NCBI GenBank assembly: GCA_046563655.1
Contig: CM102283.1
Location: 5,456,001-5,520,000, forward strand
From: Yuukianura sp. NJ FZ-2021
Taxonomy: Eukaryota
Length of the DNA stretch: 64,000 nucleotides
Reading direction: 5' to 3'
Part shown: piece after piece, positions 10,989-53,398 of the stretch
Layout of the letters: each line of letters starts with the position of its first letter
Position numbering within the stretch: the stretch's first letter is position 1
Program-made: the position numbers and the translations under genes
Notes under the pieces: generated by a model
What the model saw: the letters and a program-made list of their open reading frames with translations, nothing else
Told to the model about the DNA's origin: nothing
The model's database searches: none

Positions 10989-11134
10989 TAAACCTCAGAA
11001 TAAGCGGAAAATTCACCTTAAACCTCAGAATCAGCGGAAAATTCACCCTAAACCCCAGAATCAGCGGAAAATTCACCCTAAACCTCAATTAGCGGAAAAT
11101 TCACCCTAAACCTCAGAATCAGCGCAAAATTCAG
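10989..11134. repeat. 30-bp minisatellite, ~5 copies
   Basis: Unit TAAACCTCAGAATCAGCGGAAAATTCACCC repeated head-to-tail with few changes. Confidence 0.9.
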
Positions 11135-11526
11135 AACGTTTAATAAAAACTAATTAAACAAGGTTTAATAACAGTTTAATAAAAAAAAGTTAATACATGA
11201 AACTCTGTGATGTCAGAACAAACCTCCATTGTGGGTCCCCGTCTTTTCGATAAAAAATCGCTTATGTCGCCACGACAGGTCAAATCATTGCCACGCAAAA
11301 AATTCGTACATACGGGAAACACTTTTCATCGCTCAGCGACGCATATCCCGTCACCCTAATGTCAAGGCTACCATCTTCAAACATGGCGGAGACGTCTAAG
11401 CCGAAGCCCCAAGTTTCTCTAAGAATCTCTTGCATTGCCGATACGGAGTTATACTCCGACTAAGTCGCCCGACAGTGACCGCCCACATCTTGGATTCTGC
11501 GGAGACCCTCCAGTGCCCCCCCCCCC

Positions 11527-12000
11527 CCGCCAAAATTTGAATTTAAGCAAAAACCACTTTTCAACTTTTTCAAGTTTTTCGAAAAAATTCATTTGAACGA
11601 CTGTCTTTGCTTCGAAACTAGTTACTCCCTTCACTTTCTCATTACAAAATGAACTGGATTCGCTCCACTTTTTCATTCCAGAACAACTGATTCCCGCCAA
11701 AATTTGAATTTAAGTAAAAACCACTTTTGGAGTTTTTCAAGTTCTTTTTAAAAAATTCATTTGAACGACTGTCTTTGCTTCGAATTAGTTACTCCCTGCA
11801 ATTTCTCATCTAAAAATCAGCTGTTTTTTATCCACTTCTTCATTCCAGAACAACTTATTCTCGTCAAAATTTGAATTTAAGTGAGAACCACTTTTCAACT
11901 TTTTCACGTTTTTAAAAAAAAAAATTTTATAAAAAAGTACATCGACCGACTTTGCTTCGAAATTAGTTACTCCCTCCACTTTCTTGTCTAAAAATGCACG
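11527..12000. repeat. ~168-bp tandem repeat, ~3 diverged copies
   Basis: Units begin (CCGC)CAAAATTTGAATTTAAG...ACCACTTTT at ~11527, ~11694 and ~11862, each containing TTTGCTTCGAA..TAGTTACTCCC. Confidence 0.85.
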
Positions 12001-13633
12001 AAACTTTATTTTCAACCATCGAGAAAACCTGAATTAGCGACTCGTCCTCATTCAAAAAACGATAATGCCAACAACTCTTAAAATGGCGGAGTAGCATATT
12101 TCGTTCTGCGTCAGCAAATTACACACCAACTCTTTCACTACTGCTTGTTTCAGAAACAACTCAACTCCGTAGTTAGGTTGTAGGTCAAAGGTTTCCTACA
12201 AATCACCCTTTATCGGCGAAACCGTGATTATTTAAAAAAAGTCACAAGTACCCCTAGCCTTTGGTGACTCATTCGCTTCCCGACTTTTCCAGCAACATCT
12301 ACAAACTAAACTTGGTGAGGTTTTCTAAAATTGTTAACCAACTGACATACCCACCTCCGCTACATTATTTGCAACACCTTCAATTCGGTACCATACATCG
12401 CTTCTTTTGCCAGAGTCGTCACTTTGTAACGTTTTTTTTTGTGGATGATGTCTGCTATACTTTGCTACTCCATTCCGAATTCAATTGGTAATTGTTCCCG
12501 AAATTTTTTGGTGAATCATTAAAAGTAGCTTTGACACTTCACTCTTTTAGGCACGTTTCTTAGACAACATTCCGAATTTTTAGTTACACAGGTCGCAGGA
12601 AATAACAGCGAAAATGCGTCAAGCTTTGACCAAATTATCTTCTGGGTAGCAGTAAGTATTACAGCATTCGTGCTCACACTCATGATTATATGCGTCTGTC
12701 ACTTCTCCTCAAAACTTGCACGTGTGCTGCAGCGACGCCATACGATTCGTAAGTAACATTTCTAGAACCATTCAATTCATTCGCTTCCCGTTCTACATTA
12801 CGCAGTGTTTCTCCTACAGGACGAGATTATGCCAGCGACGATTGCATTTTCTACCAAAACCCATCCGATTCCATGGTCTCAACCAAGCACATGTCAACTT
12901 TAAATCATTATTCCTTGCTCCTTTGAGCAACATCTGCTTGATAGGAGCGATAATTTTTAATCTTCAAACAATGCTTCCACTGTCAACTTGTAACTTAACT
13001 GTATTGCGTTATCTAAAGTTTACTACAACTTTGTTAACTTCGTCCTTTCTGTTGCATTCATGCACCACCTTCGTACTGGGAATAAAAATACACTCTTAAC
13101 TTGTTCATGTCGGCAACATTCGTCACTATCGTTTTCGTTTGCCTAAACTCTTACACCACATCTTTTTTCGTTATCATACGGTTTCCCAGTCCCAGGTTTT
13201 TCTGGATAACGTTTGAACCGCACTGAAATTTTCGACTGGGAAGAGGGCATAGGTGAAAATGAAAGCCAATTCAAGGGTCATTGTTGCAACAGTCAATATG
13301 TCGTAGCAGCATGGACTCAGCCACCGAAAATCATCGGACTAGATGGTACAGTTTATTGCGACGTACAACTCAATTAATTCTACAAACTTGTTTTGTACAA
13401 CTATATCAACGTTTATTCCCGCATTCTACAACGTTTTCTTATGTCAATAGTTAACTAAGTTAACTATAACTCTCGGATTAAAAATATTACTTTCTAGAAG
13501 CCGCATAAAAACGAGATGCTCCACACTCCCTACGACACGGTCCAACACGAGCGTTTCCCACCAGAAATGCATATACTTTTACACTTCTCAAACAAAAGTA
13601 AGTTTGGCTCAGACCCTTTTTTTCACACTCAGC

Positions 13634-14185: not shown

Positions 14186-14750
14186 GTGGACAAGTTCTCG
14201 GAAAGCCTCTTGCCAAAGGCATTTCTGAAATCTGTTACGCCAGTGGAAACTGGAGCTGATGGAAACTGCTTTTTCAGGGCTGTTTCCTATCATTTATTCG
14301 GTGCTGAGACATATTACAGTACATTACGCTTCGCTGCACTAATTGATGTACTTCGGAATGAAGCTAATTACCGAAGATTCATTGCCATGCCGCTACGGAA
14401 GACAATTATGAGGCGTTAGTAAATTCTTGTCCAAAGATAGCATGTACGTTGGCGACGCAGAAATATACGCCACTTCAAAAATCCTAAAGCGGCCAATAAA
14501 CGTCTACACCGAATTCAAAAAAGCACCAGAAGGCGACAAGGAATTCTTAGAGTACATGCGCAACTCCAATAACCGAAACCATCGGCGAACTTTATTTGAC
14601 GATGAAGACGCTAAGAATGACCCAATCATGTTACATTACAGGGGAATGTCTGCTAGCGCTAGAAAGAAAAACCATTTTGTAGCATTGTTGTCAAAGGGAA
14701 ACACATTTTTCCCTTGTAACATGGACGAGTATGTACGGCTAAGAAAATTT
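14186..14750 (+). pseudogene. Frameshifted OTU-like cysteine protease domain, probably transposon-borne
   Basis: VETGADGNCFFRAVS (catalytic Cys motif) in one ORF; GDAEIYATSKILKRPINVY and KNHFVALL (catalytic His) in a different frame. Confidence 0.7.
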
Positions 14751-14779
14751 GGCCCAGTGGTAATGATTTTTATTACCGT

Positions 14780-15276
14780 CATTGACGCCCTCCCAGTGAA
14801 AGTAAACAGTGTCATGTGCTACTCTGACTCTACCAGTGTCCTTGGCTGGCTTAAGCCCGGTTCCGACCCGCCGCGCAAGCGCGACATTTTTGTGATGAAC
14901 AGAGTGCGTCCCATAATGCAACTACTTCCGACCGCTAAGTGGAACCATGTTATTGAATCCGAGAATCCAGCCGACCTTCCGTCAGGTTTTTCTGCAAATT
15001 TCTGCAAAGGAATTCCTAACCAACCCACTTTGGCTCAATGGACCACCGTGGGTCAAGTTCACCCAAGTGCCACCCATAGTGAATGTTTGCTCCGTTGGTG
15101 TGAACCTACCATTACCACCACTTCTGGAATTCATCAATTCCACATCCTCTCTCCATAAGATGAAATCGTTCGTGGCATCAGGTCAACGTTTTCTAAAATG
15201 TGCAAAGACAAAAGTGAATGACAACTCCCCTTTAACAGTAGTGGAGTTGGAAGATGTCCTTCTGACTATCGTCTAG
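14780..15276 (+). mobile_element. Degenerate BEL/Pao LTR-retrotransposon pol fragment (RNase H region)
   Basis: YSDSTSVLGWL...FVMNRV...WNHVIESENPADLPS, then frameshifted LWLNGPPW, which are characteristic Pao RNase H motifs. Confidence 0.8.
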
Positions 15277-24478: not shown

Positions 24479-27132
24479 ATGGAAACAAGATCTTCTCATG
24501 CACGAGACCCAATATGGCTGTTAGGAGAATCTCTGGATATGATTTCAGGAACAAACTATCATCCAACGGACAGGTGCTTCGGCGACTCTTTCATCTGCTG
24601 AGAGAAGATAAGAAAACGGCAAAAGATGCTGCTTCTATCGTTACCCATGAAGTCGCAGAATTCTGGGAAAGGGCAAGGATTCCAACAAGAAAGGACTACC
24701 ACGTCATTGCCAAAGTCTTAGACCTCCATGAAAAATATAGAAAACTACAGAAAAGTGCTTCCAGGAAAACCCCAGCTCAAACAAAGCTTGAAGAAAGTTA
24801 TGTCAGTACCCTCGATGACCTCTTCGATATCGCTCATGCTGACGCGCTCTCACAAATTACAATTGAAGAAGACAGAAAGTTTCTTTTAGCTCAAAGGGAA
24901 AAGGGTAAGTCGTTTTTTTAGCCTACATAACTAAATTGATACTTTGAAATCGAAACAAATTCACCACGATTTTAACAAATCCTTAGGTCGTCGGGGTCAT
25001 ATGGCTGGAATTGATAAATCTTTGGCGGCACTGGAATTACGCCAAGAAGAGCGGGAAATGAAAAGGCAGAGCACGGCAGAAAAATACGCCTCTAGAAATA
25101 TACAGGAAACTGTAGAGCTGGCAAGTTCAACATCTAGCTCTGAATCGTCACCAGAACGAAGGCACGACCCCGAATATCGGCCGTCGCGCCATCGAGGTAA
25201 ACCGAGTGGGAACGAGGCTACTCCCGGAACTTCAAGAGACAGAGGAACCACACGGGGAAAAGTTGATGTTGTTACGCTGGACTTGGCAATGGCGCTTGAC
25301 AGAACCCAGACCAGCGACAGAAAAGCGTCGCATGTCCTCGCGGCTATTATAACCTCACTCGGCCTTCCCACCGATGACTTCAGAATCGCCCCGAGCACAA
25401 TCCGAAGAGCCCGGGTTTCTAATCGAGAAGCAATTGCCAGGGAAATTAGAAGAAATTTTGCTATAAAAGTGCCGCTCGTGGTTCACTGGGATTCAAAAAT
25501 TATGCAGGCTCTGGACAGACCGGAGAAGGTTGATCGTGTTGCGATTTGTGTCTCTGGAGAGAAGATTACAAAACTACTCGGAATACCAATTCTCAAGCGT
25601 GGGACCGGCGACGCCACTGCTGATGCTGTTTTTGAAATGTTAGTGGATTGGGACATCGTGGATCAAATTGAGTTTATGTCATTTGATACTACATCCGTCA
25701 ATACCGGAAAATGGGCCGGGGCATCTGTATTACTTCAACAAAAGATTGAAAGGCAAGTCATAGGAGTAGCATGCCGACATCATGTGCTTGAGCTTGTCAT
25801 CGGCTCGGCCAATAGCGCTACGTTGGGAAAAACCACGGCCCCTGAGGCTGGACTTTTTAAGAGATTCCGAGATCAATGGAAATCAATTGACAGATCGACC
25901 TATGCTTCTGGTCTGGAGGACGATTATGTTATGAAAGCACTAGAATCGAACCTAGAAGTGTTGAAGAAAAATGCAATGGCCGTATTGAACAGGGGGACTG
26001 TTAGAGATGACTATAGAGAGGTTCTTGAACTTTGCCTAATTTTTCTTGGCGACGTTTCCTCACCAAATTACAGAATCCGTACCCCTGGACCGATCCACCA
26101 CGCTCGCTGGATATCTAAAGTATTGTACGGAATTAAAGTATTTCTGTTTCGCCAGCAATTTCAAATGTCAGAAAGCGAATTCCTGTCCCTCAGGCGGTTT
26201 GTCACCTTTACCGTAAAGGTTTACGTGGGGGCGTGGTTTCGTGCAGCAAAAGCCAGTACAGCTCCAAGACGGGATTTGGAATTCATCAAAACCTTGATTC
26301 AGTATGAAAGTCAGGATGAGCAAATATCTCAACAAACGGTTCATACATTTATGAACCATCTTTGGTATCTAAATCAACATTTAATTGGCCTTTCCTTTTT
26401 TGACGACGTTGTGCCCGTGGAGACAAAGCGGGAAATGGTTGCACGTCTTCAACATCAAGCCGACGCTCGCGTTGAACCTAGGCCGTTGCTTACGGTGAAA
26501 CAAATTAAAAATGCTCAACTTCCGGATTTTGTCACTGCCAATACGCTGTACTTTTTGGATGCTCTTCGACTAGAAAAGGATTTCTTGAGTTTTGATCCTA
26601 GCAACTGGAATGATTTTCCATCGTTCAAACTTGGAATTACACGGGCAAACAACCTTCAGGTTAGTCTTTAGCTACTTGAACTTAGTAGTGCCGTTTAACC
26701 TAATTACCTATTTAGTAATGATGTATCTACGTAATTTGAAGGTTTACTCTTTATACATTCCAGGTTGTCAACGACATTGCGGAAAGGGCAATTGCATTGG
26801 CACAGGACTTCAATTCCATCCTCAGCAAGCAGGAAGAGCAAAAGCAATTTCTTTTTCAGGTGGTCGAGCAACACAGGAAGCAGTTTCCTCGAGCGACGAA
26901 AGCCGCTTTTGCCTCGAATTTCCCACAATAGTTCTAATACTTAACGCTATGATGCCGAATTACCATTATGGAGGTTACATAAAAAGTTGCTGCCTTTGAG
27001 GCACCTCTTAGCATAGTGCTATAATTCTGAAAATTTTACTAATTTTTTTTCTTACATAATGTAACATTTTTGGAGAGTGAGACTTGAAAAATAAATTAAA
27101 CAAGAACCTTAGGTCAGTGTAGACGCACCCTA
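24479..27132 (+). mobile_element. hAT-like (hATm-type) DDE transposase gene with 2 introns, one frameshift and a candidate 3' terminus
   Basis: Catalytic motifs VVHWDSK, SFDTTSVNTG, ACRHHVLE (CxxH), HHARW and VVNDIAERAI. Introns at ~24905-24987 and ~26660-26763; TAG at 26929-26931. 1-bp frameshift near 24550. GCACCCTA at 27125-27132 resembles a TAGGGTG-type terminus. Subfamily assignment is tentative. Confidence 0.8.
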
Positions 27133-45943: not shown

Positions 45944-46185
45944 TATTGAAAAAAGATGGACTTCAAGAATCAATTAACGCACGGCTTAACGAACAGACTA
46001 AAATTTATCAACTTTCGAGTTTCCACAATTGGCAAAATTTTATTTTTGTGCTAAATTTATCAGTTACAAGATTAGATACGAGTTAACTGAATCTTACACC
46101 TAATAGTCTAACCAAACACTTTGACGCAATCATACTTATGCCTACTTCTAAAATGAAAATTGGTTAATTGACAACGTTACCTTAA

Positions 46186-46665
46186 TTAAATATCTGTGTA
46201 GTAAAGGTTACGCGGTCCTTCGGTAGATAATGTAAAACCAAACCTAGGATTGCCCCAGAATTTGTTCGAATTTTCTAAATTTTTGTCAACTTCGAACTCC
46301 AATCGTGTTGCACCTCGTTGGCGACCCCAACTTGTAATGTGCTGTTTCATGTCGCTTCCAATTCCTCTTCTTCGATATGCCGGATCTACATAAAATTCAG
46401 CAATGACAACCACTATGGTCATGTTTGACTCTGTGCTGTAAGCATTGGACAATCCGACTGGTCGATTGTCCAAGTAGTACAGGAAGAGACCTCTTCCGCC
46501 TTCCAGAATTCGACGTTTCAGTAGCTGATCATACTCGACCGTGAATTCTTCTTTCGTTTTGGCAGCCATTTCCTCAGGCCAGTTCTCCGACATGTAGGTA
46601 AACATCATGTCCAAGAAAATGGGCCACTCAACAGTATTTGGATCAACTGGTCGAATGTCCAGCAT
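46186..46665 (-). CDS. GNAT-family N-acetyltransferase (intronless CDS)
   Basis: Motif A IAEFYVDPAYRRRGIGS and motif B NENSNKFW..FGF-like (NLENSNKFWGNPRFGF). A splice-acceptor-like TTTGTATTCCAG lies just upstream of the ATG. Confidence 0.85.
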   Translation of the reverse strand: MLDIRPVDPNTVEWPIFLDMMFTYMSENWPEEMAAKTKEEFTVEYDQLLKRRILEGGRGLFLYYLDNRPVGLSNAYSTESNMTIVVVIAEFYVDPAYRRRGIGSDMKQHITSWGRQRGATRLEFEVDKNLENSNKFWGNPRFGFTLSTEGPRNLYYTDI

Positions 46666-47033
46666 CGCGCAGACGCATTTGTTGTGCAGATCCTTCCCTG
46701 GAATACAAATTTGAACAAAAATATTTCGTTTTGAAAAAATTATAACAGAGATGAAAATTTTTATAAAACCTCAACGTAAAGTTTTTTTTTCACACCAATT
46801 CGATCCAACCTACACAAGTTCAAGTTGAATTTGAGATAAAAAAGTCATCGTTATGCAAATTGTCGTTAAATGAAGCAAATAGTGTGGCAGACGCTGTTTG
46901 ACATCATTTTGGTAACATCCGGAAGTGTGTTTTTATACGCCTGCGTAAAAATGCCAAAAACCATAACGAAGAAGAAATATTCGTAACCAGAAACAGTGCT
47001 TTAATAACTAGTTTTACTAATACTAAAAGCAAA

Positions 47034-50000
47034 TTACAATTTTTTGAATTTTAAAATGTAGGATTCAAAAAGTTTGAAAAACGGATTCTCCTCATCCTTA
47101 ACTTTTTCAAAATTGTTTGGATTTGAGCCAAATTCGTAATTCATTGCATCCCAGTAAACATCTCCAAAACCAAAAACGAATCCACTCATTCCAATTTCGA
47201 AACAACTTTTCAAAATTCCCTCCAAATAGGCTTCAGCTGTAGTAATTTCTCTGCAAACGCCAAATTCTCCAACGAAAATCCGGATTCCATGGGAATCGGC
47301 CCACGTTTTCGCTTTTTCAAATTTCGCCTTGATGACGTCATTGTTCCACGGGAGAATTGGGCCAAGTTGTCCTTCGTACATAGGAATTTCTCCTGGAAAT
47401 TTGAATCTTCCGCCATTTTTTCTTTGAGTAAATTTTCTTGGATCGTAAAAGTGAAATGACAGAAGAAGATTTGAATCTTTTGCAAAGAGTTTTGGTGGGA
47501 AAAGCGGTACAGCGTCGATATGGGCCCAGAATGATGGTTCCAGTATTATCGGTGTGATTGGATCCACTTCACGGATGGAATCGATCATGGTTAAGTAAAC
47601 CTGTAGTTCGGCGGGAACCTCTGAAATATGAATACATTAAAAACATAATTTAACATAATATACTATGTAATATAAAGTAATAACTTTAATTTTTTTACAT
47701 AATAAATTTAAATTTAATATTAGCACATTTTAAATTAAATTTGAGTCTCAATGTTATCAACCTTACCATTGTTTGGTTCAACACTTTCGAGTTCTGTAGA
47801 CTGCATGTCTTGTTCAGAAGCCAAGCTCGGTTCATTGATAATGTCGTAGCCTACGACATTTTTGAAAAACTTCAATTCTCCCGCGATGAAGTTCCAAAGC
47901 AGTGGACTTGCCAAATTATGATGGAGAGTTATGACGACTCGGATTCCAAAATTTTCAAAACTGCGTACCGTCTTTTTCAAATTTTCAATTTCCAAATTCG
48001 GATCCACCTTGAATCCAGAAAATTCGCAATCATATTTCGGTCCAATGCCGTTAACCCCTACGGCTCCGATTCGAACGCAAGTGACTCCCAAATTCGAAAG
48101 TATAGCTATCTGCTCAGCCCTGAGTGTCGACGGTACGTTGAAACCAATGAACGGTAAGTCCCAAAATCTCGACTTTTCGGTTTTCATCGTCAAAATTTCA
48201 GCTTCACTTAGGCGTTTCTCGGTATTTGAGGGCCACGATGGCCAACCTTGCAGCATATGGTGAATGTACATTTGGATTCTAGCTTCTCTGACTTCCGGTT
48301 TTGTATGTAAAGCTAATCCAACAGTGTCCGAATCCTCTGTTCTCGTCATAACCGCAACTGAACTCCTAGCGGTACTTAACTTTCTTAGTTGCCTGTTAAA
48401 TGCAACGCAATTCAAAAAAGTTTTTAAAAACGTTCTACAGAGGCTTCAAAAAAGTGTAAAAACTTAAAAATCCTAACCTGTTGAATTTATGATTGAGCAC
48501 AAATGACATCCAGTAGTCGTCGACTAAGTTGAAACTTGGATTTGGCATTTCCACGGACAAACATTCTCTCAGCGCCATTTTTGGAATTAAACAAGCATCG
48601 GCATGGACAAAATGAATGAATTGTTCTGGAGCTTCGTCCGATTTAAAACGCAAGTTTTCATAACTTGCCCAACTTCCCCGGGGATTCTCAAGGTCAAGTT
48701 TATGTGGCTGAAATACGTGACCTCTGACACACAGTACGTCTCGAGGGTATCTGGAGTGTCCGTTCATAAAGAAACTGACAAATCCTGGTCCAGGAATGAC
48801 ATCGTCATCACAAATCAGCAGTGCTTCACTTTTCATCAAAGGTGCAAGGGCAAGTCTGATGGCGCAGTAGTAGTTTTCAGATGAATCTATGACTTCAACA
48901 GATTTCGCTCCAGTTGATTTTTGAATGAAGGGAGCCGCGATTCTTCGTACGACTTCTGATCTGGCTGAGTTGTTGTTCCAAAGTATGATTTGCATGCTGC
49001 CGGAGTAGTCTTGGTTGTTCCAGAGAGCATTCAAGATTTTGGCCAAGTGGTGGGTTCTTTTGTAACAACAAATGGATATCGTCAAGTCGANNNNNNNNNN
49101 NNNNNNNNNNNNNNNNNNNNNNNNNNNNNNNNNNNNNNNNNNNNNNNNNNNNNNNNNNNNNNNNNNNNNNNNNNNNNNNNNNNNNNNNNNTTGGTGATCC
49201 CAGAGAGAGTTCAAGATGCTGGCCAAGTGGTGCGTTCTTTTGTAACAGCAAATGGAGATCGTCACGTCAAAATAAGTTTTCGGTGCCAAATTCGAATTTA
49301 AATCTCCCGCTGCCGCTGATAGGACGCTTCTTCGCTGGATTGTTTCAATAAAATGGCTCGTTTGGAATTTCGTTTTGTCCAGATTTTGCAAATATTCTAT
49401 TGCTAGTTTAATGTTTTCTTTTGTAACTAGTTCAGTAAGGTCCAAATTTTCATCTTCATGGTCATACAACAAGGGATACTGTTCTCCAATGTACTCTGTA
49501 CAAGACTTCATCTTTGGCACGACAATTGGAACATTTCGGTCAATACATTCCAGGATAATCGTGTTTGCCGCGCCTTCGTATTTAAGCGCCAAGAAAACAA
49601 CGGATTTAAGCAAAGTCTTCTCATAATCTTCTGCATTTTGTCTCGAACGAATTTGAATGTCTTGAGGTGCCTCAGCCGCCGCCAATTCGCCATCATTGTC
49701 ACTTCCAATCAAAACTTTTTGAAAATTTGGCGGGATTTTACATTTGAAAAACAGTTTCCAATTCCTGGCAAAACTTCCAATTAAAACAAAGTCGATGATT
49801 TTCCCTTTTTCCCAGCCATACAAAAGAGTGGAATTGCAGATTGTTGCGGAGGGAAGGATCGGGTAGAAGAGACGCTGAATTGGAATTGAGTTTGCCAAAT
49901 TCAAATTCTCCCGCAAATATTCTGCTTGAACTGTCGTGAGTGTGAATAGACCTCGGCAGTACTTCATTCCTTGTGCATATTTCTTGGTGCAGAGACGTTG

Positions 50001-53000
50001 TAAATCCGGTGTATAAAATTGTTCTGGATGCTTCACCACCGAGTGAATCACTCCAATCCATGGATTGCCAACTAAGATCTCCGGAGTATCAGCAAAGGCT
50101 TGTTCAACTGCTGGAATGAACACGGTAGATGCGCAGTCATCGTGGAACTCTCTGCGCAGAAGTGCAATCGATTCTTCAAAGGCATTGTTATGATGGTGTG
50201 TCCACCCAGGCGGATTTTCAAACTTCAATTTCTTGGTGGGAGACAAATCCAATATGGCGGGAATGTTACAAATTTTCTCACTTTGCCCCGAACCGACATA
50301 CAGAAATCCCTTAGCAATTGTTATTGGCTTTCCAATTGTCTTCAGTTCCCACGCATGCGCCGTAAAAAATGGAATTGAAGATCGGTTCAGTCCGTTGAAC
50401 ACCAAAATAGTTTTGCCGGGTTTCAAAGTTGGTTGAATAAGGTTCCAGATTTGTTCCAATTCTTCTCCGTCTTGTGTAATATCAACGAAAACCAAGTCTG
50501 GTTGAGTTTGTTTCAATTTTGGCGGCAATTCTTCAAGTTCGTATTCCCATTCAACGGGAACAATATTGTCAGAATAGCTTTCCGTAAACTGATTGAATTT
50601 ACGCAGAAAGGATTTGCCAACGCCCATTCTCCCTTCGGCGTAAATGAAGTCGTCCATCCACTTTTGCCATTTGAAGGCATCACAAGCATAAATTGTACTT
50701 GAAATTCCTACAGATTTTGCAGCAATGGCCAATCGCACCGTGGCATGGCCCAACCAGCATCCAATTTCCCATACAATCTCAGGACGTTTTGTTTTCATCA
50801 GCCAAGTCAAAAATTGTAAAGTTTCGACATCCGTTGTAGTGGGAATTCTGAAAGCATTTCGATATTCTTCTGCATCCAAATCCTCCAGTATCCATGGTCT
50901 CTTGGTGTCCTCAAAATCGTTTTGTGTTTTGAAATAATTCAAAAATGGCGCCCAATATTCCTGAAGTTCCATTCTAGATTCCGTGTTTGAAAGTTCTGAC
51001 AAGCACAAATTGCACTCTTCTGTCAGCATTTCCATGGCGTCCCACCGTTCATGGAGCAAACTTTCTTGTAATTTGAGCCCAACGGAAGCAATTCGGCTGA
51101 ACAAATGGCCTCGGGCGGAGGCAAAACCATCGGAACTCTTCAACATCAATTCAAAAGTTCCCGGTTTTATGAAAGGTTGATGTGGCGCTTGAATTTGCAG
51201 TGGCGGGAGATTCAAAATTTTGCCAGACGGGTTAAAGTATTCTCGAATTACTGAAACGATGTAGTCCAAATCATCTTTGCAGAGACTCGTGTATGTTGGA
51301 AGGTAAAATCCAGTGGTTCCGAATTTTTCTGAATTCGGTAACCTGATACTTGTGGAACCATTTGAGTTGTAGGCTGGTTGCAAATGAAGCGGGAAAAAGT
51401 AGTCGCGTGTTTCAATTCCATGTTGGGCCAAAAAGGCGCGAAGATTTGTGCGTTCAGATTTAGATTCACATTCGACTCCAAATACCCACGGAGTGTCGTG
51501 GGCACCGCAAGGGGGCATTAGCTTCAGTTGTGAAATTCCGGCCAAAAGTTTTCTGTATTCCGTAGCGAGAAAGGCGCGATGATTCAAAATGTGTTCCATG
51601 TCGTCTAAGCATCCACAAGCAACTGCTGCTCCAAGTCCATTGATTTTGGCGTTCATGGCGACTTCAAAATGGACGAAATGAAATGACGGCGTGAATCCGT
51701 GATTGGCCAAACTCGAAATTCTGGAAGCCACGGCCGGGTCTTTGGCCAACACAAATCCTCCATCTCCTGCATGAATCATTTTGTTTGCATAGAGACTTGC
51801 GCAGGCGTAGTGTCCAAACATCCCAAGATACTTTTCTGTGCCCGCCGAAATTTGAATTTTGATTCCAACACATTCGCTTACATCTTCAATCAGAATCCAT
51901 CCGTTGGCATTACACTGGCTTTCGATTTCTAGCAAATCTTTTGTAGGAACAGGAACACCGTAAGTGTGTGCTACAATAATAGCTCGAGTCCTCTGCGTGA
52001 CACATTTTTGAATTTCGGTCCATCCTGGATTGTAATTGGCTGAACTCGAATCCGCAAAAACCGGAGTTGCACCAATGAACTTGCAAGCATTCGGTACTGC
52101 AACCATCGTTAAGCTTGGAACGATAACTTCGTCCCCTGGACCAATCCGAGCAGTTTGTAAAGCAAGGACTAAGGCAGTAAATCCATTTGAACAAGCAAGG
52201 GCCACAGGAACTTCGAAAACTTTTTTCAATTTTTCGCTCATTTCCGTAGGCCAGGAAGTTGCTGACGAAATTTTGCCAGTTTCGAGGGCATTGTAAACGT
52301 TGTCTTTGATTTTAGTTGACATGTAGGGCATAGCAACTCTGTAGCGCCATCCAGTATAGGGCGCCGGTGGCTCTCTGTCGGGAATCATCGGAAGTATGTC
52401 TTCAGCCACTTTCAGTTGGGATTCTGATTCCAAGCGTTTCAAAATTTCAGAAACGTCCAATTTCAGATTTTGAATTTTGGGAGGAAGGTCGGTCCAATTT
52501 GAAATTTTTTGTTCCAGGGGAAACGGGTTTTGTTTTTGAGCGAAAGATTTTAGGGTGTGGCCAATCGGATTGCAAGAAAGAGCTGCCAAAATGGAGTTGC
52601 AAGTTTGAGCTCGATCTGCAACTAGGTTTTCGTAAGTGACAAAAATCGGAACCATTTGAACAGGCCACTCTTGTCCAATTTTGATCCAGTCTCGAACGAT
52701 GTCATCGTATTCCTTTTGAATTAAAGCAGCGGAGAGATGAACTTGGTGACATTCCTGTCCAACTTTATCAGTAAACCAAATTTTAGTTTTCATGGCAATG
52801 TATTTTGAAACAATGGCTTCCAGAACTTGGGCTCTCCAGAGGACAATGACGTGAGTAATTCCGAGACTCTCCGCAAGAGTATTGAAACTGAGTCCTCTTC
52901 CATAGATTTGTTCTGGAAATACTTTGAAACCGATTTTCTGTGCTTTTAGCTTGGAACTGAGCATTTCGGACCGGATGAAATCCAGTGGAGGCAGTCCATC

Positions 53001-53123
53001 CGGAATGTCATTTTCGTCGTTCAAGAGTTCGCAGAACATGTAAATGTCTGGATGCGAGTTGAGGAGATTCGCAAGCAAAGTGGATCCAGTCCTGGGATTG
53101 GCCAGAATCAAGAACCGACTCAT
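47034..53123 (-). CDS. Giant six-domain glycan-modifying enzyme: sulfotransferase, DegT/perosamine-synthase-type aminotransferase, SAM methyltransferase, GT-B (GT4-like), GT2, GH5 (3 coding exons, ~1950 aa, contains an N gap)
   Basis: Motifs in order: PRTGSTLL (PAPS loop); SNGFTAL, IEDVSE, SLYANKMIHAGDGG (PLP Lys); VWEIGCWLGHAT, DLVFVD; SVVFL..AANTIILECIDRNVPIVV..EYIGEQYPL; ISICCYKR, ICDDDVIP, VDDYW; GYDIINEP, SFHFY, VGEFG. Exons 53123-48478, 48392-47767 and 47620-47034 are joined in frame by GT-AG introns. Confidence 0.82.
49091..49190. other. Assembly gap (100 N) with diverged duplicated flanks
   Basis: Run of N; both flanks encode the GT2 start (DVTISICCYKRTHHLASILNSLWDHQ versus DLTISICCYKRTHHLAKILNALWNNQ). 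Confidence 0.95.
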
Positions 53124-53363
53124 CTAGTTTCAAAAAAAAATATTTAATGGAAAATTTGGCTTAACAGAATTAGAAATTTGTTAAAAATTTACTTTTTCGC
53201 AGTAGTAGTTTGAGTGCGGAAACACTTTTGTCCGGAAATCAAACTTGAAACTTCGAATAGATCTGAGTCTTAGAAAGTTTTCAGTTTTTAGACAGCCTGG
53301 TAAAATAAGTTTAAAATTAATTCAAAATTTTAAAAACTTAAACAACGAGGCACTTACTTGTTA

Positions 53364-53398
53364 AACTGAAGTGCACTCAGGAACAAAGTTATTATATA
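53364..53398 (-). promoter_or_regulatory. Candidate Pol II core promoter of the giant enzyme gene (TATA plus arthropod initiator)
   Basis: TATATAA at 53398-53392 is 31 nt upstream of the A of TCAGTT (53369-53364). Candidate 5'-UTR introns 53357-53297 and 53192-53124 follow, the last ending in AG directly before the ATG. Confidence 0.65.

Follow-up and report, generated by a model that had tools for sequence, protein, structure and literature searches.

Our results support a model in which one intact nuclear gene of three exons, on the minus strand at 47034-53123 of a 64,000-nucleotide (nt) stretch of contig CM102283.1 (assembly GCA_046563655.1, Yuukianura sp. NJ FZ-2021, positions 5,456,001 to 5,520,000; hereafter the window), encodes a megaenzyme of a conserved six-domain family. 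We consider it probable that this model holds in full, including its two further elements: that the domains were already fused before the gene came to be in this animal lineage, and that the protein acts in the making of an amino-sugar glycan, a mechanism deduced from its domains. Rather than being a one-off, the gene adds a member to a family that is already in the databases but unstudied. The original prediction for this region, made from the sequence alone, had read it as a horizontally acquired bacterial pathway condensed into a single animal polypeptide; its account of the gene and its domains has largely held, whereas its account of their origin has not.

Three open reading frames (ORFs) of the minus strand, 53123-48435, 48415-47735 and 47588-47034, fuse in frame through two introns, giving the following gene model.

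48478..53123, minus strand: exon 1, with the start codon at 53123-53121 and a 3' end in AG ahead of the GT donor; it contains the sulfotransferase, DegT, O-methyltransferase and GT-B domains and most of the GT2 domain, and includes the probable artefact at 49091-49273
48477-48393, minus strand: intron 1, 85 nt, GT..AG, phase 2, split codon AG/G
47767..48392, minus strand: exon 2, a conserved segment after GT2 and the N-terminal half of the GH5 domain (NEP acid/base motif)
47766-47621, minus strand: intron 2, 146 nt, GT..AG, phase 1, split codon G/AG, AT-rich
47034..47620, minus strand: exon 3, the C-terminal half of GH5 (GEFG nucleophile motif), with the stop codon at 47036-47034
49091..49273, no strand: apparent assembly artefact, 100 N and a redundant second copy (49191-49273) of the first GT2 residues

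A stop codon stands immediately 5' of the ATG at 53123, and the N-terminus of exon 1 aligns with residue 1 of homologous proteins. Retention of intron 1 leads to a stop at 48435; its removal yields the junction KFNRQLRKL, which matches KFGRKLRKL and similar segments in homologues without a gap. With the artefact left out, the joined coding sequence (CDS) is 5,676 nt long, has a single, terminal stop and encodes 1,891 amino acids (aa). Residues 1 to 1889-1891 of the spliced protein align with six full-length homologues (P0002, P0004, P0005, P0011, P0013 and P0014) at 41-47% identity, and in the eight homologues displayed neither the two splice junctions nor the joint over the gap is interrupted by an insertion or deletion. 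The original prediction had joined the same three frames into one spliced gene, and the in-frame GT..AG introns and the end-to-end alignment with homologues agree with it. The coordinates and phases that it gave for the introns were likewise borne out, but it overlooked a gap of 100 N and an 86% duplicate beside it, and its length of about 1,950 aa shrinks to 1,891 aa once the artefact at 49091-49273 is removed.

The gap, a run of 100 N at 49091-49190, is the only N-run of the whole window and falls inside exon 1. It is flanked by a duplicate, the region's only repeat, in which 49191-49268 is 86% alike to 49011-49088. Gap and second copy together look like an assembly artefact, because the first GT2 residues occur just once in homologues, with no insertion or deletion there, because runs X1 and X3 (from the same sample) each have one Logan contig that matches on either side, at 49090 and 49274, and because a 3-nt deletion variant at 49271, seen in X2 and X3, matches the one-codon difference between the duplicate copies. 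Leaving out the 183 nt (61 codons) of 49091..49273 preserves the reading frame. The artefact probably represents two alleles placed side by side.

Each of the six domains named in the original prediction is backed by Pfam, by a fold search or by both, and the catalytic motifs that it had called intact, namely the 3'-phosphoadenosine 5'-phosphosulfate (PAPS) loop, the YANK lysine, DDD, NEP and GEFG, are present in the window protein and conserved across the family. The five domains ahead of the glycoside hydrolase family 5 (GH5) domain were placed as follows.

52563..53111, minus strand: PAPS-type carbohydrate sulfotransferase (Sulfotransfer_3/Stf0-like), aa 5-187, by Pfam
51246..52319, minus strand: pyridoxal phosphate (PLP)-dependent sugar aminotransferase of the DegT/DnrJ/EryC1/StrS family, perosamine-synthase/LegC-like, aa 269-626
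50322..51242, minus strand: helical linker and cation-dependent class I O-methyltransferase, with Pfam Methyltransf_24 at 50403-50768
49311..50231, minus strand: GT-B glycosyltransferase (retaining, GT4/GT5/GT20-like), by predicted fold
48564..49079, minus strand: GT2 glycosyltransferase (GT-A fold, inverting) with a DDD motif, by Pfam PF00535

The sulfotransferase scores 32.0 bits against Sulfotransfer_3 (PF13469; cut-off 27) and 26.8 bits against Stf0 (PF09037; cut-off 22) in Pfam, which places it among PAPS-dependent sulfotransferases. Its PR[TSA]GS loop is found in all 13 of the 13 family rows that cover it, and a VLWR motif is also conserved. Matches to Stf0 and NoeE in NCBIfam are weak and far under their cut-offs (26.9 bits against 400 for the Stf0 equivalog), and the top sequence match in the PDB, NodH, is weak as well (E 0.25). 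The DegT domain is a clear member of its family: it reaches 230.7 bits against PF01041 (cut-off 19.8; E 3.9e-68) over profile positions 4-359 of 360, and the YANK[MIL] motif, whose lysine we take to be the PLP-binding active-site lysine, is present in the window protein and in 20/20 family rows. In the PDB its top sequence match is perosamine synthetase (3bn1/3dr4/3dr7; E 4e-45, residues 2-367 of 370).

For the methyltransferase, a Pfam match to Methyltransf_24 (PF13578; 32.4-33.2 bits against a cut-off of 26.3) and a Rossmann-type fold identify a class I S-adenosylmethionine (SAM)-dependent enzyme, and SAM motif I is likewise conserved in the family rows that cover it. An AlphaFold2 (AF2) model with a predicted local distance difference test (pLDDT) score of 88 matches PaMTH1, MeT1, MycF, SpnH and COMT in Foldseek with probability 1.0. 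The structures matched are of the COMT/CCoAOMT type and include the sugar O-methyltransferases MeT1, MycF, SpnH and CalS11, a resemblance of fold that suggests O-methylation as the reaction of the predicted domain. The GT-B domain of the window has no match in Pfam or NCBIfam, and its AF2 model (pLDDT 85) matches retaining GT-B enzymes in Foldseek (probability 1.0, E about 1e-7), among them glycogen synthase, GlgM, OtsA, SenB, BshA, WaaG and MshA. At E<=1e-3 its relatives number 2,214. Many of these stand alone as proteins of about 300 aa, and some of the stand-alone relatives show sub-threshold matches to Glycos_transf_1.

The GT2 domain belongs to PF00535 (28.1 bits against 23.3), and its [IV]CDDD[IV] motif is conserved in 18/18 covering rows. 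The GH5 domain (PF00150, Cellulase) is recognized on exon 3 with 45.7 bits against 23.5 (E 7.8e-12) and in orthologues with 57-61 bits, which establishes its membership; exon 2 alone gives a weak Pfam Cellulase match (0.003). An INEP-type motif occurs in 18/19 covering rows and GE[FVS]G in 12/12 rows that cover it fully, and the nearest solved chains by sequence are endoglucanases (6kdd, 8.4e-11; FnCel5A, 5e-9). PDB sequence searches with the GT2 piece and with the methyltransferase piece gave nothing useful. A simple hydropathy scan found no signal peptide or membrane segment (maximum Kyte-Doolittle KD-19 value 1.75, inside the GH5 barrel), in agreement with the original prediction.

The architecture recurs well beyond the window. 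From 5.8 billion proteins searched, we recovered 19 homologues of the same architecture, full-length or nearly so, at 37-45% identity. Those with named animal sources are listed below.

P0002, Orchesella cincta (springtail): 1,912 aa, full-length, automatically named 'GDP-perosamine synthase'
P0004, Orchesella dallaii (springtail): full-length
P0005, Paramacrobiotus metropolitanus (tardigrade): 1,953 aa, full-length, 'uncharacterized protein LOC129581980'
P0009, Bradysia odoriphaga (sciarid fly): full-length
P0017, Brachionus plicatilis (rotifer): full-length, automatically named 'aminotransferase'
P0006, Dinothrombium tinctorium (mite): partial record

The named full-length homologues are about 37-48% identical to the window protein and carry the six domains in identical order; the named animal orthologues align with it from first to last residue at 39-48% identity. 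Two differences stand out in this comparison: the window gene has its own two introns, and the rotifer orthologue has an extra N-terminal region (residues 22-299) of PUA_2 and ATP-sulfurylase-like type ahead of the sulfotransferase. The latter fusion links the protein to sulfate activation. In a search with residues 627-1283, we also found a collinear protein of 1,955 aa (P0056) in the EukProt transcriptome of the chrysophyte Epipyxis sp., of which only the DegT and GH5 domains reach the Pfam threshold. Among 21 metagenome loci with homologues, 10 hold a single unbroken ORF and 7 show breaks (4 intron-like gaps and 3 frame changes), none of which lies at an intron position of the window gene. 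The most divergent full-length homologue, at locus L017 (8013-10025, minus strand, and 11110-12921, plus strand), is a 1,919-aa single ORF flanked by a STELLO-type glycosyltransferase gene and an ABC ATPase gene. The six-domain family thus appears to be conserved and patchily distributed in small invertebrates and at least one protist record.

These findings change the standing of the gene. The original prediction knew of no described system with this architecture, and this remains correct for the full texts searched, in which we found no description of the architecture, of its orthologues or of any eukaryotic perosamine synthase; databases, however, already hold automatically named orthologues, and the supposed uniqueness falls to the presence of the same six-domain order in at least six other named eukaryotes, including the chrysophyte transcriptome, and in many other records. 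Text matches to 'DegT' in two papers proved to be an author surname and were discarded. Table S6 of PMC4987106, which gives 253 transfer candidates in O. cincta, may include the orthologue. The Protein Atlas has no cluster for the family; its sole look-alike, a cluster of 866-aa phage proteins with DegT, Methyltransf_21 and Glycos_transf_1 domains, scores 0.75 and is a lead only.

Since the same six-domain order is found in other phyla and in a chrysophyte record, the fusion must predate this animal lineage, which argues against the claim that a pathway was condensed in this animal. The 120 best stand-alone relatives of the DegT domain (P0204-P0323) are 41-56% identical to it, the eukaryotic ones among them 43-52%, and all 15 of the 15 named ones are eukaryotic (11 dinoflagellates and 4 sponges). 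The DegT domains of the megaenzymes form one clade (support 86 in a FastTree of 163 rows, 94/87 in an IQ-TREE of 42 rows) that is sister to a dinoflagellate clade (96 and 100/96, respectively); a sponge-type clade comes next, and bacterial fused forms are outermost. Dinoflagellates widely carry perosamine-synthase-like genes of the stand-alone kind, and sponges have them too. Horizontal transfer from bacteria is therefore not indicated for DegT, whose nearest named relatives are eukaryotic and whose sister clade is dinoflagellate, and the same observations give no support to the bacterial donor of the original prediction. Judged by these sequence comparisons, the domain would descend from a eukaryote-rich clade of perosamine-synthase-like enzymes and not from a recent bacterial donor.

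Prokaryotic and viral collections were scanned as well; the GTDB and viral scans used two short peptide patterns each and can miss relatives. A pattern scan of about 185,000 prokaryote species genomes (one per species) gave two DegT matches, both in metagenome-assembled genomes (MAGs; L044 and L045). L044, from a Stappiaceae MAG, is poor in ORFs and is possibly eukaryotic DNA that was binned in error. A GTDB scan with the GT-B alignment gave 81 pattern matches and no relative, a weak negative, since the DegT part of the alignment supplied one of its two patterns. Among viral contigs, the short-pattern scan with the DegT alignment found no relative, and the GT-B alignment led to 22 loci holding stand-alone GT-B relatives only (23-34% identity), with no second megaenzyme domain in the flanks fetched. 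A giant virus as vector was also considered and found no support, these 22 loci being distant stand-alone relatives only.

The alternative that separate genes of bacterial O-antigen or capsule type were transferred into this animal lineage and fused there is, in our judgement, very unlikely. It would explain why the six domain families are, by their Pfam and NCBIfam names, typical of bacterial polysaccharide pathways, why stand-alone GT-B relatives sit in polysaccharide clusters (for example L022, with carbamoyltransferase, WbsX and Glf genes), and why bacteria-like proteins such as P0032 and P0038 combine DegT, methyltransferase, GT-B and GT2 domains. However, these bacterial fused forms are only 24-31% identical over the DegT part and fall as an outgroup in the trees; the domain order shared with other phyla and the chrysophyte makes the fusion older than the lineage; and the eukaryotic identity of all the named nearest DegT relatives is joined by a composition of the gene that is fully host-like.

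Two further accounts of the family's patchy distribution deserve consideration. The first, to which we give slightly less than an even chance, is that a ready-made fused gene passed repeatedly between protists, soil and freshwater micro-invertebrates and arthropod groups. The scattered carriers (Collembola, Acariformes, Sciaridae, Tardigrada, Monogononta and a chrysophyte) fit such a history, as do intron positions that vary among carriers and the many copies that are intronless. The whole-protein tree unites the named animals and the window in one clade (98), outside which fall Epipyxis and P0058/L017; the window is sister (97) to a clade with Orchesella, Bradysia and other sequences, and Bradysia groups with Orchesella and other relatives with 100% support inside a springtail-containing clade. 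Canonical terpene synthases are common to Sciaridae, Collembola and Acariformes and have been ascribed to intraphylum transfer (PMC11665903); the same trio of groups carries the megaenzyme. Nonetheless, the single clade of named animal sequences speaks against repeated transfer, the grouping of Orchesella with Bradysia is equally predicted by vertical descent in Hexapoda, the identity of about 45% between phyla fits ancient divergence, and no vector is seen (there are no flanking repeats, and the 22 viral loci lack a second domain).

The second account is possible but rather unlikely: the gene would have come down vertically from an early ancestor, animal or eukaryotic, and been lost independently a great many times. 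The monophyly of the animal sequences, the stand-alone perosamine-synthase-like genes of sponges, a fully ameliorated composition and the deep divergence between phyla (37-48% identity) are all consistent with it. Conversely, the carriers among named records are a few small-bodied lineages, intron positions are unshared, and the animal clade is an unresolved polytomy that places the rotifer among panarthropods. Between vertical descent and transfer among eukaryotes we lean towards transfer, a preference that we hold loosely.

The surroundings of the gene support its place in an animal genome. Its neighbours are C2H2 zinc-finger genes, a RhoGEF exon and a sepiapterin-reductase-like gene of the short-chain dehydrogenase/reductase (SDR) type, whose nearest Atlas clusters are arthropod. 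GC content at third codon positions (GC3) is 0.36-0.45 in the megaenzyme exons against 0.40-0.46 in the host genes, and overall GC is likewise equal. The original prediction had placed the gene in an animal setting, and both the neighbours and the host-like GC3 confirm this. Comparison of the window at 46000-53300 with DNA contigs of runs X1-X4 gave 691 differences over 7.3 kb, mostly at 90-99% likeness, and run X4, from a second coded organism, covers 26/30 bins of this interval. The differences indicate high heterozygosity, pooled individuals or a close relative with the same gene. Among the 31 CDS variants in the matches listed, 17 are synonymous and 14 non-synonymous, counts that may mix alleles, paralogues and a relative; the synonymous excess over neutral expectation among these variants reflects constraint. 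The gene has long resided in an animal genome, probably that of an arthropod, and is not a contaminant.

We therefore find it extremely improbable that the gene is an artefact, whether bacterial or other contaminant DNA wrongly joined to animal sequence or a set of three genes that are separate or in decay. Such a reading could draw on the fact that the window's only assembly gap falls inside the gene, and on splicing being deduced from sequence signals and homology. It is opposed by the two introns of spliceosomal type, by the two halves of the gene, which are collinear, keep one frame over the gap and have contigs on either side of it, and by the host-like GC3. In addition, three of the named animal orthologues lie on contigs of 1.7-5.4 Mb in other animal assemblies, and the 1,891 codons have no internal stop, keep their motifs and show the synonymous excess described above.

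Several other features of the locus were recorded. Upstream of the gene, 53126-53398 on the minus strand contains TATATAA at 53398-53392; some 31 nt further on comes an initiator-like TCAGT (53369-53365), followed by a GTAAGT at 53357 and an AG that abuts the ATG; read by eye, these motifs suggest a candidate promoter and an intron in the 5' untranslated region. No direct or inverted repeats were found flanking the gene, and carriage by a mobile element was rejected on that ground. At 46186-46665 on the minus strand, 368 nt downstream of the megaenzyme gene and on the same strand, lies an intronless gene for a 159-aa GNAT acetyltransferase with a weak NCBIfam likeness to aminoglycoside N-acetyltransferases (32 bits against 140) and two relatives in the large protein search. 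Although N-acetylation of an amino sugar is a possible role for this enzyme, we rejected it as a member of the system, since none of 43 related loci has a homologue and adjacency is the sole tie. Two long ORFs without a Pfam match, at 24935-26671 (plus strand, 578 aa) and 14412-15158 (plus strand, 248 aa), are unrelated to the megaenzyme and are probably mobile-element remnants.

The domain set suggests a mechanism. Per and LegC both use GDP-linked 4-keto sugars (GDP, guanosine diphosphate), and GDP-4-keto-6-deoxymannose is an intermediate of animal GDP-fucose synthesis. A soluble, probably cytosolic protein would thus take up GDP-4-keto-6-deoxyhexose, for which the animal's own GDP-mannose 4,6-dehydratase is a candidate source; with the substrate supplied by the host enzyme, a dehydratase domain would not be needed in the megaenzyme. 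The DegT domain would aminate the keto sugar to a GDP-4-amino-4,6-dideoxyhexose of the perosamine type, the retaining GT-B and inverting GT2 domains would assemble a short glycan or glycoside containing this amino sugar, and the O-methyltransferase and PAPS sulfotransferase would tailor or cap it. The GH5 domain may then trim, release or transglycosylate the product. In view of the sequence, it is likely that the megaenzyme makes a GDP-4-amino-4,6-dideoxyhexose in the cytosol and uses it to build a glycan that is sulfated and O-methylated. The sulfated, methylated amino-sugar glycan proposed in the original prediction is accordingly a reasonable candidate product.

Known multi-domain glycan enzymes offer partial precedents for this arrangement. 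WsaE of Geobacillus joins a methyltransferase to two rhamnosyltransferase domains, A064R of chlorovirus PBCV-1 has two glycosyltransferase domains and a methyltransferase, WbdD/WbdA and WbbB are multi-domain enzymes of glycan assembly and termination in O-antigen pathways, and the cyclic beta-1,2-glucan synthase Cgs combines transferase and glycoside-hydrolase-like domains. By description, all of these resemble the window protein in uniting glycosyltransferase with tailoring or glycanase-like domains in one polypeptide on the cytosolic side. To our knowledge, however, none of them also has a nucleotide-sugar aminotransferase, a sulfotransferase and a GH5 domain, and all are bacterial or viral. 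GDP-perosamine synthase Per is alike in DegT sequence (E 4e-45) and YANK motif, but it is a stand-alone bacterial enzyme of about 370 aa, whereas here the domain is embedded in a protein of 1,891 aa. Among database proteins, P0128 (1,453 aa) has GT-B-like, GT2, GH5 and Sulfotransfer_3 domains in that order, so that the cassette of GT-B, GT2 and GH5 seen in the window recurs with the sulfotransferase at the opposite, C-terminal end. P0071 (GT-B-like and GT2) and P0032 and P0038 (methyltransferase, GT-B, GT2 and DegT) hold subsets of the window's domain types. As a group, P0032, P0038, P0128 and P0071 differ from the window protein in domain order, in their methyltransferase families and in an identity of 24-31%.

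Some observations weigh against the model and temper its details. At the level of the gene, splicing and a single mRNA are deduced from homology and splice signals, and the gap joint is seen in a single contig per run, in two runs from the same sample, with a short side of 36 nt and the sequence between reported as 'not known'. At the level of origin, the eukaryotic affinity comes from one domain of the six, DegT, and the taxonomic range from named records, and the Epipyxis transcriptome record may come from a contaminating organism. At the level of function, other sugar aminotransferases rank close behind perosamine synthetase in the PDB (1.8e-39 and 1e-34), and DegT reaches no curated NCBIfam equivalog cut-off, its top match being the LegC family (TIGR04181) with 196.7 bits against 420; 'perosamine' is for this reason a best guess at the DegT product. 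What the hydrolase would do in one chain with two transferases is conjecture, and substrate, product and activity are predicted for every member of the family.

Finally, our study has implications for the glycobiology of small invertebrates. We know of perosamine-type 4-amino-4,6-dideoxy sugars from bacterial O-antigens and antibiotics, not from animal glycans, and the domain set suggests that springtails, mites, sciarid flies, tardigrades and rotifers have a product as yet unexplored, for the discovery of which the megaenzyme offers one gene open to direct test. The finding is real and testable and would surprise a glycobiologist, although it is less singular than the original prediction held. 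Tentatively, and with more doubt than confidence, we propose that a scattered group of small invertebrates and some protists use this single cytosolic enzyme to make a new class of sulfated, O-methylated 4-amino-4,6-dideoxyhexose glycans or glycosides by way of an intermediate of the GDP-fucose pathway, and that the gene moved between eukaryotes that share a habitat, for example between springtails or mites and sciarid flies. Because the six-domain unit is common to distant micro-invertebrates and a protist record, and because its nearest domain relatives are eukaryotic, the family is a candidate case of the spread of a whole pathway from eukaryote to eukaryote in one gene.

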